From an uncultured Clostridiaceae bacterium (lineage in GTDB: Bacteria; Bacillota; Clostridia; TANB77; CAG-508): a stretch of DNA of 64,000 nucleotides. The stretch lies in the NCBI GenBank assembly GCA_946493085.1, contig CAMMAC010000003.1, forward strand, positions 452 through 64,451. Direction: 5' to 3'. Below the pieces are notes generated by a model. That model made no database searches and had not been told where the DNA came from. It saw nothing but the letters and a program-made list of their open reading frames with translations. Both the position numbers and the translations under genes were made by a program. This document shows positions 49,844 through 58,930 of this stretch, in pieces. How positions within the stretch are numbered: position 1 is the first letter of the stretch; every line of letters starts with the position of its first letter.

Positions 49844-51196
49844 CTAAATTCCTGCTGCAGAGAACATAAAGGTTCCCATATATACTTGTAACATTGGCAC
49901 TAGTACAATTAATACAAAGAAAATTAATACAATACCCACTATAGAATATACTACTTGTGGCATTACTTTCATAATGTGCTCTAGAATATTATTCATATCA
50001 ATTTCCATATATTCTACTAGTTTTTGCATCATTTCTGTTAAATCTGTCTGCATACCAATTCTTAACATTTCTGTTTGCATAGAAGAAGATAATCCAGATT
50101 TTTCAAATGGTTCTATCCAAGAAGCACCAATTAAAATATTATTAATAGAAGTTTCTACCATAGATAAGAATACATAATTACTAACTACGTTTTTACTAAC
50201 TTCCAATGAATCTTGTATTCTCATTCCATTTTCCAAATTCAAAAGCATTGCTTTAATAAATCTTGAAAAATCTAAACTATAAATTAATTTTCCAAAAATT
50301 GGCATGGTATATTTAAAATAATGAAAATTATATTTTCCTTTTGGTGTATTAATATAAAATATAATGGCTGCCACTATAGCTACTATAATAAATGTTGGAA
50401 TATACCATACTTGTAGCAGGCCATTTACAAAATTTGAGAAAGCTAAAGTAATTGGTGAAAGTGTATCTTGGCTTCCTACTGTATCATACACATTCTGTAC
50501 TGCTGGAACTGCCACTAATGTTCCTACTATTAACATAATTAAAAGTGCTGTAAATTGTATAATGTTTGGTATCAAAATACTTTTTATTTTTCTTGTAATA
50601 GTAGAATTATCATCTAAGTATTTTACTGCTTGTTGCAAAGAATTAGTAAGAGAACCGGATAACTCTCCTACCTTTATCATATTAATATATATGTACGGAA
50701 AAATATTAGAATAATACTCCATTGTCGTATACATATATTCTCCTGCTTCCACACCAGCTAAAATATCTTCTAATATTCCTCTAAAGGATAAATTTTCTGT
50801 GCTTTCTATAATGGTATTTAATGCATGAATATTATTAAAATTCGCTTTTTTTAGCAAATAAAAATTTTGTGTAAAAATTACAATATCCCTTGTTGTTATT
50901 TTTTCTGTTGCAGAAAGTTTCATATTTAATTTTTCTTTTAAGCTTGCCTTTGTTCTATTATCTGCATTCAAGATATTGGTAGAGTTAGCCGTTTTCATAA
51001 TATCATCTATACTAGTAATATTTCTTTTTGTTTTCCTTGCACTTTTTTTACTAGCGTAACCCACTTGTACAATGTTAATGGGCGTTAATTCATTATTTTT
51101 TAATCGCTTAATGAGAACTTGTTTACTAGAGTCTTCTACCCTATTTTTTACAATAACACCCGTTTTGGTTACTGCTCTATAAATATATTCTGGCAT
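49844..51196 (-). CDS. pilC: Type IV pilus platform protein (GspF/PilC family)
   Basis: 450 aa. Two GspF-like repeats with three TM segments. Last gene of the pilus operon. Confidence 0.85.
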   Translation of the reverse strand: MPEYIYRAVTKTGVIVKNRVEDSSKQVLIKRLKNNELTPINIVQVGYASKKSARKTKRNITSIDDIMKTANSTNILNADNRTKASLKEKLNMKLSATEKITTRDIVIFTQNFYLLKKANFNNIHALNTIIESTENLSFRGILEDILAGVEAGEYMYTTMEYYSNIFPYIYINMIKVGELSGSLTNSLQQAVKYLDDNSTITRKIKSILIPNIIQFTALLIMLIVGTLVAVPAVQNVYDTVGSQDTLSPITLAFSNFVNGLLQVWYIPTFIIVAIVAAIIFYINTPKGKYNFHYFKYTMPIFGKLIYSLDFSRFIKAMLLNLENGMRIQDSLEVSKNVVSNYVFLSMVETSINNILIGASWIEPFEKSGLSSSMQTEMLRIGMQTDLTEMMQKLVEYMEIDMNNILEHIMKVMPQVVYSIVGIVLIFFVLIVLVPMLQVYMGTFMFSAAGI

Positions 51197-51273
51197 TGTT
51201 AACTTTCCTCCATCTTCTTTTTATTCTTTTCCTAGACTTTTTACAAAATATTCTTTATTTTTTAATACTTATT

Positions 51274-56606: not shown

Positions 56607-57311
56607 CTATTCTTCTACTGCATTTGCCTCTGTATTTTCTGTATTTGTATTTGCCTGTTCATTGTTACTTTGTGCATTGTTATTTTGTGCATTATTGTTT
56701 TGTTCTTCTTGTACTGTTTGCGTAGAAGTATTTCCTTGAATTGCTACATTTTTTACAGTAAAGGTGGATCTTAAAATATTGCCCTGATTTGGATTCAAAT
56801 TAAATCCTTGTATTCTAAAATTCAACTCTCCATCGTTTTCAATTGCTGAAATAAAATTAGTAATTGCTATATAGCTACCATCTACTGTGAAGTTTAAATT
56901 ATACATTCCGCTCACACCTGTGTCATTAGAAACAATTTGAAGTTCTATATTAACTCCTTGTTTTTTAGCATGATTTCCTATTCTTGCCCATAAATATTCT
57001 ATGGTATAACTTTCTTGTTTCATAGCATCTAAAATTTCTTGATCTGAACTAACATTTGTCAAATTTAAATATTCTTCTTTTGCTGTTTTAAATTTTTCAC
57101 TAGCTACATTTAAGTCGTCCATTTTTTTTGGAAATGCTACATCTATAGATTGATTTAGTTCTTGTATTTTTTCATCTAGACTTTTATTTGCCTCTATAAT
57201 TTGTTGAATTCCTAATACATGGATGTTACCAATACTGATACCAGAACTTAGTGCAAAGTAGACTGCAACAATTAGCAGTATTATTATTAAAATTAATAAT
57301 ATTTTTTTCAT
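56607..57311 (-). CDS. PilO-like pilus alignment protein
   Basis: 234 aa. N-terminal TM, a coiled coil, a ferredoxin-like region, and a low-complexity N/Q-rich tail. Follows pilM/N with a 4-nt overlap. Confidence 0.5.
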   Translation of the reverse strand: MKKILLILIIILLIVAVYFALSSGISIGNIHVLGIQQIIEANKSLDEKIQELNQSIDVAFPKKMDDLNVASEKFKTAKEEYLNLTNVSSDQEILDAMKQESYTIEYLWARIGNHAKKQGVNIELQIVSNDTGVSGMYNLNFTVDGSYIAITNFISAIENDGELNFRIQGFNLNPNQGNILRSTFTVKNVAIQGNTSTQTVQEEQNNNAQNNNAQSNNEQANTNTENTEANAVEE

Positions 57312-58930
57312 GGCAACTCTCCCTCTATTACAATTTTTACAACATCACCTTGTTTTACTCCAGAAGTAGAAACTGTATCTCTTAAAATTAAGTCATTTTT
57401 TATTCTTCCTACAAAATATCCTAATTGATCATACTCTCTTGCTTCTGCATTAATAACAATATGAGTTCCTGAAGTATTCTGTATAGAAGTAATGGTTACT
57501 CCTGTTGGAATAGCATACATAATTTCACTTAGTAATGTTGGTATAACATCCTTTGTGCGGTTACTATCGGTTTTCTGTTGTCCATATTCTTGTAAATCCT
57601 GTATCATTTCCTGATAAGTGGTTGTTTTGCCATTAATGTTTGTTAAATCTGCATCTGCTAATGCAATTTGTTCAGACGTATCTCTGATATTTTCTTCTAC
57701 TTCTTGCTGTTTACTATTTATTTGACTATTTAAGAAAATAGAAAAGCCTGAATAAATAAGAAATAAACATAAAATTCCAACCGCTCCACGAAGCATCCAT
57801 CTTTCTACTTTATCTAATCCACCTTTTAAGCTAAAAGAAAAATTAATTTTTGTTTTTTGCTTTTGCTTGGCTCCTTTATTTTTGCCCCCTACTTCTATTT
57901 TCATCCAATCCGGTAAATTGTCTAGCAAACTAGTTTTCTTAAAATTCATACTTTTAATTCCATATCCTAGACCTTGCATAGCAAGAGCAATAGCAGAGTT
58001 CACTTCGATATAGTCCTTCATGTTAATTTTTACACTGTCTGGTATAAAATATGGTTTTAAGATTTCACATTTCTGATCTTTTAAATACTCTTGGAAGTAT
58101 AAGTCAATATTATTAATCACACTGGCGCTACCTGTAATATATACCGTATCTATTTTATTTAGAGAATTATTAATCAAATTTTTTACTTGCTCTAAAATTT
58201 GATATAGGGTAGGCATAATATCTTCTAAGTATAAGTTTTCCTCTTCTTGTAGTTCTTTTCCTTCCATTGTATAAATGGTAGAATTTTTGCAAATTTCATA
58301 TGCTTTTGAATAAGAATTTTCTTTTTCGCTTATACTATCTAAAATGGTTTTCATTCCATTTTCTATTTTGTCTACATGGTAAATCTTTTTGTCAACAATT
58401 GTAGTAACTGTTGTTTTTTCTTCAATGTTAACAATCATATAGCCTTCTTTTTCTTTAATGTCTGCAATATTTGCTATAGCCATCGGCATAACTGTAATTG
58501 TAGAAACAGATTGATTTACTAGTTCTTGTAGTTTATTATTAATTTCTATTTTATTTGTAGAAATATATATCGCTTTTATTTTCTCTTTATCCTGTAAATC
58601 TGGAACCAAGGCATATCTAGTTTCCAAGGCATTTCTATTATATCCTTTGTCAAAGCAATAAGAATCAAACTCCGTTTCAATAGCTTTTTTTAAATCATTT
58701 TTATTTAACAAATTAAAAAAATAAAAATAATTGTAAGTTTCTTCAGCCAAATTTATACTAATAGGAATCTTATAACTATAAGTTTCTGCAACAATTTGTT
58801 GAATTGCACTTCCTAATTGTTCATAAAACTTAACTCCAAAAGATTCCACTCTTAAATTATCGTGATCTCTTGTTACTTTTGCATATTTTATTAAATTACT
58901 TTCAATATATAACCCTAAGCAACTAGCCAT
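57308..58930 (-). CDS. PilM-PilN fusion protein (actin-like ATPase + bitopic PilN-like domain)
   Basis: Start MASCLGLYIE.. behind RBS aaaggag. An approximately 340-aa PilM-like domain is followed by a TM segment (GAVGILCLFLIYSGFSIFL) and a PilN-like C-terminus. Confidence 0.72.
   Translation of the reverse strand: MASCLGLYIESNLIKYAKVTRDHDNLRVESFGVKFYEQLGSAIQQIVAETYSYKIPISINLAEETYNYFYFFNLLNKNDLKKAIETEFDSYCFDKGYNRNALETRYALVPDLQDKEKIKAIYISTNKIEINNKLQELVNQSVSTITVMPMAIANIADIKEKEGYMIVNIEEKTTVTTIVDKKIYHVDKIENGMKTILDSISEKENSYSKAYEICKNSTIYTMEGKELQEEENLYLEDIMPTLYQILEQVKNLINNSLNKIDTVYITGSASVINNIDLYFQEYLKDQKCEILKPYFIPDSVKINMKDYIEVNSAIALAMQGLGYGIKSMNFKKTSLLDNLPDWMKIEVGGKNKGAKQKQKTKINFSFSLKGGLDKVERWMLRGAVGILCLFLIYSGFSIFLNSQINSKQQEVEENIRDTSEQIALADADLTNINGKTTTYQEMIQDLQEYGQQKTDSNRTKDVIPTLLSEIMYAIPTGVTITSIQNTSGTHIVINAEAREYDQLGYFVGRIKNDLILRDTVSTSGVKQGDVVKIVIEGELP

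Follow-up and report, generated by a model that had tools for sequence, protein, structure and literature searches.

A conserved type IVa-like pilus operon in uncultured gut Clostridia, with predicted pilins lacking Glu5 and a PilD homologue lacking the GxGD motif

A 64,000-nucleotide stretch of contig CAMMAC010000003.1 from an uncultured Clostridiaceae bacterium (hereafter the window) was analyzed, with emphasis on a candidate type IV pilus operon at positions 49844-58930. In our best reading, which draws on sequence comparison, this operon would be the core of a type IVa-like (T4a-like) retractile pilus of gut Clostridia related to Clostridium sp. CAG:508 (TANB77). We estimate at roughly 0.55 the probability that the operon specifies a T4a-like machine whose helix-only and modular pilins assemble independently of Glu5, with their leader cut by another enzyme or a non-canonical site.

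The operon, its motor and its alignment-complex candidates

The operon consists of ten tightly packed open reading frames (ORFs), all on the minus strand, whose coordinates were checked. In the order of transcription they encode a PilM-PilN fusion, a bitopic protein of 234 amino acids (aa), a bitopic protein of 140 aa, the short pilin P8, a PilD homologue, the minor pilins min1 and min2, PilB, PilT, and PilC (Table 1). Public gene calls match these ORFs, and only PilB, PilT, PilC, and the N-domain of the PilD homologue carry an annotation there. Relatives of PilB with 71-95% identity were found in 80 species-level genomes, which are metagenome-assembled genomes (MAGs) of uncultured Clostridia including Clostridium sp. 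CAG:508, CAG:780, and CAG:273; CAG-508 is a major family within the order TANB77 (PMC11680825). All ten genes were present, in unchanged order, in at least 70 of the 80 related loci, confirming that the operon is more than a chance arrangement. The window has a G+C content of about 29%, and its DNA, which is of chicken-gut origin, is contained in chicken-gut metagenomes.

Judged by their sequence matches, the identities of PilB, PilT, and PilC are unambiguous. PilB matched T2SSE (PF00437) with an E-value of 2e-102 and TIGR02538 with 6e-120, under the equivalog cut-off of the latter. Its closest solved structures were T. thermophilus PilF (1.3e-92) and M. xanthus PilB (9e-88), with the CxxC...CxxC tetracysteine motif aligned. 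For PilT, the TIGR01420 model gave an E-value of 6.7e-93 and 311.6 bits (cut-off 319.1), and P. aeruginosa PilT matched over the full length (1e-58). PilC contains PF00482 in two stretches (2.7e-22) and matched GspF with an E-value of 4.6e-46, the GspF/PilC models as a group ranging from 1e-46 to 1e-34. The N-terminus of PilB (residues 1-150) resembles MshEN (PF05157, 6.4e-5), and the model for the cyclic di-GMP-binding motif (NF053729) scored 31 bits (cut-off 38), which suggests that pilus extension could be under cyclic di-GMP control. The Walker A motif of PilB reads AAPTGEGKTT, with the first Gly changed to Ala and the usual Ser to Glu; PilF is aligned there as GPTGSGKS.

The first gene of the operon encodes a protein of 540-555 aa with an actin-like N-domain, a transmembrane helix, a coiled coil, and a PilN-type C-domain. 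The ORF opens at 58975, but translation probably begins at its M16, where most homologs start. The Pfam model of PilN matched 11 of 25 orthologs, with a best E-value of 6.6e-6. In a Foldseek search with an AlphaFold model of low confidence (predicted local distance difference test, pLDDT, 52), the nine best matches in PDB were all PilM, ahead of FtsA; they included 5eoy (7.8e-11), 3jc8_Ma, and 2ych, with TM values of about 0.35. A profile of the fusion gave no signal against PDB. The fusion of PilM and PilN, proposed in a preliminary description of this DNA, is supported by the PilN model and by the fold matches. The same description had seen in these genes a complete type IV pilus machine for both assembly and retraction, and this is supported by the matches of PilB, PilT, PilC, and PilM/PilN and by the synteny.

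The two bitopic proteins follow the fusion. The start of the 234-aa ORF overlaps the stop of the PilM-PilN gene by 4 nucleotides (nt), and the protein is kept in 72 of the 80 loci. The 140-aa protein, kept in 73 loci, is by its position possibly a part of the alignment complex. It has an invariant Y..P..K..P pattern and a conserved GKxNPF motif, and its Asn/Thr/Ser-rich tail often closes with STGTFFNxTGxK.

Pilins on a common stem

Homologs of P8 numbered 355, and the best 120 listed were almost all 69-79 aa in length, none of them with a Pfam annotation. The orthologs are near-identical across MLKGQKG↓ITLVALVVTIIVLIILAGVSI (the arrow marks the predicted cleavage site), with invariant G-1, T+2, and A+5. 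Mature P8 lacks Phe1, Glu5, and Pro22. Its hydrophobic alpha1 of 25 residues leads into the conserved turn GDNG, after which one polar helix makes up the last 35 or so residues. The preliminary description of P8 as little more than alpha1 plus some 35 polar residues therefore holds for a conserved family of 69-79 aa. As P8 aligns end to end with the first approximately 70 residues of several long proteins encoded elsewhere in the window, it represents the bare stem of a modular family.

A profile hidden Markov model (HMM) of the stem detected eight genes in the window (E-values 5e-26 to 4e-35), namely P8 and the seven dispersed paralogs that had been described before (5e-26 to 6e-33). The signature G↓(V/I)(T/A)(L/M)(V/I)(A/S/T) fits P8 and the paralogs, with Ala instead of Gly at -1 in the paralog at 24100-25488. 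Like class III signal peptides, the N-termini have a short basic leader to Gly (or Ala), after which some 20 residues are hydrophobic. Position +5 is Ala, Ser, or Thr in P8 and every paralog, not the Glu5 of bacterial pilins. Among 145 class-III-like N-termini from the related loci, position +1 was Ile in 119 and Val in 23, and position +5 was Ala in 96, Ser in 30, and Thr in 6. The Pfam model N_methyl (PF07963) remained below its gathering score of 21.2, narrowly so for several members, with a best value of 19.4 bits for the paralog at 9511..10407 and 13 bits for P8, as would be expected of derived class III signal peptides. Leader cleavage and N-methylation of these pilins are predictions from this N-terminal signature.

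The minor pilin min1 departs from this pattern. In 73 aligned orthologs position +5 was always acidic (72 Asp, one Glu), position -1 was Gly in 65 and Ala in 8, and position +1 was Phe in 42, Val in 15, Ile in 12, Ala in 3, and Leu in 1. With Thr at +2 in 60 of them, the site follows the pattern (G/A)↓(F/V/I)Txx; in the window it reads NKA↓VMGVD, with Asp at +5. By its sequence min1 is near-canonical, and it is the sole pilin of the system with an invariant acidic +5. For min2, Glu was found at +5 in the orthologs of two relatives. The near-canonical min1 and these two min2 orthologs indicate that the pilin family derives from ordinary bacterial pilins. They also limit what had been claimed at the outset: a leader and helix without Phe1 and Glu5 is supported for P8 and the paralogs, but an acidic +5 is not missing from the system, being invariant in min1; a leader ending in Gly applies to most pilins, with Ala at -1 in min1 and in one paralog; and the statement that +5 is never Glu and +1 never Phe is incomplete, as in relatives min1 usually has Phe at +1 and two min2 orthologs have Glu at +5. 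In canonical systems the tip subunit alone is without Glu5 (PMC10191384). A system with a single subunit whose acidic +5 appears obligatory is, as far as the alignments tell, the inverse of that arrangement.

When the stem profile was run against 1.84 billion representative proteins, it matched 30,728 clusters (50% identity) of proteins with 67-706 aa, 18,912 of them at E≤1e-10. None of ten clusters checked carried a name. The stem sequence had no match in phage and plasmid collections, and a search of a literature collection with the stem motif string found no publication. The long paralogs vary from species to species.

We propose that the machine polymerizes pilins on a helical stem of about 70 residues, made of a short basic leader to Gly, a 25-residue alpha1 with Thr2, the GDNG turn, and a single polar helix. 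P8, the stem alone, would form the fibre body as the major subunit, while the long paralogs would co-assemble via the common stem and expose their variable C-terminal domains, which are probably adhesins or binding modules. Since P8 equals the stem of the long paralogs, the earlier model of a P8 body decorated by paralogs is a reasonable one. Packing without Glu5 would be expected to depend on continuous hydrophobic helices lacking Pro22 and on a hydrogen bond of Thr2 to the N-terminus, both of which are described for Tad and archaeal pili (PMC10710030). PilT would retract the fibre, and min1 may have a special priming or terminating position, because only min1 keeps an acidic +5.

Several features make P8 the probable major subunit. 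Its gene has a strong ribosome-binding site (AAGGAGG) and is followed directly by a hairpin with a U-run. In 42 related loci a hairpin of different sequence occupies the equivalent position (median -22.6 kcal/mol), and it is probably a terminator or attenuator of the pilin gene. Three of four chicken-gut metatranscriptomes (RNA libraries) yielded identical Logan contigs of about 260 nt that span exactly the P8 gene, and fragments of pilC, pilT, pilB, and min2 were present at similar depth. As evidence that P8 is the top transcript the contigs were rejected, since their depth is no higher than that of the other operon fragments; they therefore speak for transcription only and not for stoichiometry. 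P8 could instead be a low-abundance primer, spacer, or regulator, with the fibre body made of a long paralog or of a canonical pilin encoded elsewhere. The non-quantitative expression data, a view confined to 64 kb of the genome, and the great number of long paralogs leave room for such a role. Nevertheless, we consider it unlikely, as P8 is the sole stem-family gene fixed in the operon across loci, with a one-to-one ortholog in each, and its gene combines the strongest ribosome-binding site with a hairpin of its own, whereas the long paralogs differ between species and the Glu5 pilins in the window and flanks are limited to the two min2 orthologs.

Some of the paralogs have features of their own. 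The C-terminus of the paralog at 24100-25488 resembles an FGE-sulfatase (SUMF1-like) domain (PF03781, 1.8e-4, slightly under the cut-off). Five stem-family genes at 3809-11432 lie singly or paired within a fatty-acid synthesis (fab) cluster in the order accC, fabZ, accB, fabF, two pilins, fabG, fabD, fabH, three pilins, mscL, which is an odd, housekeeping setting for surface-protein genes. Two of the five, at 3809-4576 and 10647-11432, share the middle segment AIEKLENF..IATAITNEGV..TETDTA.TMAENIGKI...ATA..ITEGKTAYVNGE.IIG.G and diverge in their C-termini, suggesting domain shuffling in the stem family.

The PilD homologue and removal of the leader

In canonical PilD the zinc-finger N-domain is the methylase domain. 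The homologue in the operon has an intact C4 zinc-finger N-domain (PF06750, IPR010627; A24_N_bact), in which C41, C44, C66, C69, and many further residues are invariant among 77 orthologs. On the other hand, the protein had no match to Peptidase_A24 (PF01478) even at E≤10, and its best 120 database homologs all matched PF06750 only. When the protein was aligned with the canonical PilDs of three records (Acetoanaerobium, Geoalkalibacter, and Vibrio), the first catalytic box proved to be kept as GIDKE, while GxGD is replaced by Y-x-x-[E/Q/D...] and is absent from all 77 orthologs. Position 125 is Asp in 64 orthologs, Glu in 9, and Asn in 4. Position 190 is far more variable, with Glu in 31, Gln in 25, Asp in 10, Asn and Leu in 3 each, Gly in 2, and Ser, Trp, and Phe in 1 each. 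Both positions are acidic in 41 of the 77. Apart from the well-kept E127 of the GIDKE box, the C-terminal half contains no further conserved Asp or Glu. The 36 species without the acidic pair still have the full operon and a min1 with G↓F...D or G↓I/V...D.

In the literature the essential residues of prepilin peptidases are given as "two universally conserved Asp" (PMC10191384). By this two-Asp criterion the homologue is not a canonical A24 peptidase, and with neither GxGD nor a constrained second acid, cleavage of P8 by it cannot be assumed. Of the earlier designation as a prepilin peptidase, the relationship to PilD and the PF06750 N-domain thus stand, and the peptidase function does not follow. 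The N-domains of the orthologs are 70% and the C-domains 45% identical. This asymmetry was rejected as evidence of relaxed selection on the C-domain, since the three canonical PilDs are equally asymmetric (35-45% versus 22-29%). A phmmer search of the protein against PDB gave no match.

In the mechanism that we favor, the PilD homologue has most likely ceased to be the leader peptidase or shares that role with another enzyme, and it probably acts through its zinc-finger domain in N-methylation or pilin handling. Another A24 peptidase encoded elsewhere in the genome would cut after Gly-1. It could, for example, belong to the Tad-like system of TANB77 (PMC11680825); such a system would require its own peptidase.

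A number of observations weigh against this mechanism and against the wider reading of the operon. The system is known from sequences of uncultured organisms alone. In the species of the window both positions are acidic (D125, E190), and a divergent active peptidase is possible there. When the AlphaFold2 model of the homologue was compared with PDB folds, no match was obtained at E≤0.001, and FlaK was not recovered. A small HMM of the canonical C-domain detected no second A24 peptidase in the 64-kb window or in the 80 loci with 10 kb on either side; its presence elsewhere in the genome is our assumption. The 234-aa protein had no match in Pfam, in a PDB profile search, or in an hhalign comparison with the PilN part, and the name PilO-like given to it earlier refers to its position and bitopic topology, with PilO as a putative identity. 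The 140-aa protein likewise had no family match in Pfam or other HMM models and no support from PDB or profile-profile comparison. Finally, the contig depth of P8 in the metatranscriptomes was 3-5, against up to 9.9 for pilB/pilT fragments, and carry-over of DNA is possible.

Alternatively, the PilD homologue could still be both leader peptidase and N-methylase of all these pilins through a divergent site, formed by D/E125 and a polar residue at 190 or another partner, and only its substrates would be unusual. The conserved Gly or Ala at -1 and the short basic leader of all pilins are in line with this, as is the location of the gene, which in every locus lies between those of the pilins. Both D125 and E127 are well kept, position 190 is polar in 69 of the 77 orthologs, and a confident AlphaFold2 model (pLDDT 79) places residues 125 and 190 at the ends of helices in a membrane domain of eight helices; moreover, no further peptidase lies in the window or in the flanks. 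However, besides the complete loss of GxGD and of any Peptidase_A24 match, the second acid is replaced in 36 of the 77 (by Gln, Asn, Leu, Gly, Trp, or Phe among others) and the first by Asn or Glu in 13, a variation that would be unexpected for universally conserved catalytic residues (PMC10191384). We therefore regard a divergent but active PilD as a serious contender that is still rather unlikely.

It is also conceivable that the pilins are not cleaved, or that min1 alone is processed, and that the operon forms a short piston-like pseudopilus or the long paralogs are merely membrane-anchored surface proteins. This would fit the joint loss of hallmarks, with Glu5 and Phe1 missing from the P8 family and GxGD from the PilD homologue, and the failure to find a second peptidase in the window and the 80 flanked loci. 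Yet it is difficult to see why Gly-1 should be invariant and the leader M-L-K-G-Q-K-G conserved if nothing recognized and cut them; furthermore, min1 retains a canonical G↓FTxxD, the conserved methylase-type domain requires a free N-terminus, and PilT points to a dynamic external filament. In addition, a charged leader should prevent extraction from the membrane, as established for type IV pili (PMC10191384). We find the absence of cleavage quite improbable.

Removal of the leader by another enzyme or a non-canonical site thus stays our preferred explanation. A bolder extension of it, which we hold to be doubtful, is that an entire order of abundant gut bacteria has retractile type IV pili lacking both the salt bridge between Glu5 and the N-terminal amine and the two-Asp peptidase. 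Here, PilD would be a pseudo-peptidase with a methyltransferase-only or substrate-handling role, leader removal would be outsourced or unnecessary, and thousands of C-terminal modules would be carried on one stem.

Relation to known filament systems and neighbouring features

The system most resembles the T4a pili of monoderms (Clostridium perfringens / C. difficile, Streptococcus sanguinis), in which PilB, PilT, PilC, PilM/N(/O), and PilD are likewise encoded in one operon with pilins. The ATPases are nearest to bacterial T4a PilB and PilT, and the N-terminus of PilB is MshEN-like. The differences are that the major-type pilins here lack Phe1, Glu5, Pro22, and a globular domain, that PilM and PilN are fused, and that the PilD homologue is without GxGD.

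With Tad/Flp (type IVc) and archaeal pilins the system shares very short helix-only subunits without Pro22 and Phe1 and with Thr2 kept (PMC10710030), from which continuous-helix packing would be expected. Unlike here, Flp pilins keep Glu5-Tyr6 and are built by TadA/TadB/TadC with the peptidase-only TadV, whereas the present operon encodes a PilB/PilT/PilC machine and a peptidase homologue with a bacterial methylase domain. TadA-type models scored far lower, PilC is a single two-domain protein, and the EY of the Flp motif G↓xxxxEY is absent, which sets the operon apart from Tad/Flp. The ComGA/ComGB models scored far under the PilB/GspF models, and PilT and PilM-N are present, which separates it from Com pili. 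As to archaeal filaments, the FlaI model gave an E-value of 7e-20 against 6e-120 for bacterial PilB, and the peptidase homologue has a bacterial N-domain; the operon encodes neither an ATPase nor a peptidase of archaeal type. The archaeal parallel drawn in the preliminary description is thus an analogy only, with PilB, PilT, and PilC nearest to bacterial T4a proteins.

In Geobacter, PilA-N carries Phe1 and Glu5 as canonical pilins do, and its partner PilA-C is encoded downstream. In Geobacter sulfurreducens PilA-N serves as a major pilin of about 60-65 residues on a T4a-type machine (PMC10710030). P8 is alike in being a truncated pilin of a T4a-type machine, and unlike PilA-N it lacks Phe1 and Glu5 and is followed by pilD, with no PilA-C-like gene. 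Modular type IV pilins, such as PilB and PilC of S. sanguinis, consist of a pilin module and a displayed functional C-terminal domain. The long paralogs share this fusion of a pilin module to a displayed C-terminal domain, and differ in their 70-residue two-helix stem and in their number, the window alone holding 8 stem-family genes and the family comprising 18,912 clusters.

The only account of TANB77 pili found in the literature concerns a different system, a Tad-like cluster with CpaB/TadZ/CpaE/TadA/TadBC and seven pilin-like genes (Kim et al. 2024; PMC11680825), in which PilB, PilT, and a peptidase are not mentioned. It belongs to the same order, and as a type IV filament system it resembles ours in that it is conserved throughout the clade and its pilin-like proteins carry no annotation; it differs in having that gene set instead of PilB/PilT/PilC.

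In bacterial type IV pilins, conservation of Glu5 is said to be absolute (PMC10710030). A conserved, apparently functional T4a-type system without Glu5 in its main subunits and without the two Asp in the peptidase of its operon would be a natural test of the need for these residues, and the small helix-only subunits are attractive for structural work. With the stem present in some 19,000 protein clusters that lack annotation, gut Clostridia would seem to have a great variety of modules to display on their surface. A link between TANB77 / CAG-508 and the response to cancer immunotherapy has been described, and another pilus of the clade reportedly stimulates dendritic cells (PMC11680825), which makes the surface filaments of this lineage of direct interest. 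The operon should thus concern both pilus biology and gut-microbiome research.

Table 1. Features of the window discussed in the text (arrow, predicted cleavage site).
Feature	Position	Strand	Evidence
PilM-PilN fusion	57308..58930 (ORF opens 58975)	-	PilN Pfam model on orthologs, Foldseek
"PilO-like" bitopic protein, 234 aa	56607..57311	-	PilO position and bitopic topology only
140-aa bitopic protein	56169..56591	-	alignment; synteny
P8, 75-aa predicted prepilin (MLKGQNG↓VTLVA...)	55873..56100	-	homolog alignment, stem match
Hairpin and U-run directly 3' of P8	55816..55870	-	-22.3 kcal/mol, z = -4.1
PilD homologue, 271 aa	54984..55799	-	PF06750 6e-30
min1, predicted minor pilin (NKA↓VMGVD...)	54568..54987	-	73 orthologs aligned
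min2, predicted minor pilin (MKRQKG↓VTLLA...)	54108..54557	-	stem profile 8.4e-5; sub-threshold N_methyl
PilB extension ATPase, MshEN-like N-terminus and tetracysteine motif	52393..54021	-	HMM and PDB matches
PilT retraction ATPase	51274..52374	-	TIGR01420 and P. aeruginosa PilT match
PilC platform protein	49844..51196	-	two T2SSF stretches
Modular pilin paralog, 255 aa, NNG↓ITMIT	3809..4576	-	stem HMM 4.4e-29
Modular pilin paralog, 241 aa, NKG↓VTLVA	4797..5522	-	stem HMM 9.5e-31
Modular pilin paralog, 217 aa, NTG↓IAMVS	8669..9322	-	stem HMM 1.4e-27
Modular pilin paralog, 298 aa, QRG↓ITLVA	9511..10407	-	stem HMM 6.8e-30
Modular pilin paralog, 261 aa, NKG↓ITMIS	10647..11432	-	stem HMM 6.4e-33
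Modular pilin paralog, 462 aa, EKA↓ITLVT, FGE-sulfatase-like C-domain	24100..25488	-	stem HMM 4.8e-26
Modular pilin paralog, 241 aa from MKNNTG↓ITMVS	29012..29737	-	stem HMM 8.7e-32

Rfam and tRNA scans of the window gave no matches. A promoter scan returned 63 sites, with 63.4 expected from shuffled sequence, and no promoter is claimed. Three of the related loci (L024, L013, and L036) come from MAGs labelled as Bacteroidaceae, Bacilli, or Lachnospiraceae, yet their PilB is 74-76% identical to that of the window; the public records are probably misbinned or mislabelled in these cases. Next to the operon, at 48839-49742, a ROK-family kinase is encoded in two overlapping ORFs of 74 and 231 aa. 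Gene calls from several independent public assemblies (L084-L086) show the identical split, which is therefore a real frameshift or split gene and not an error in the window.

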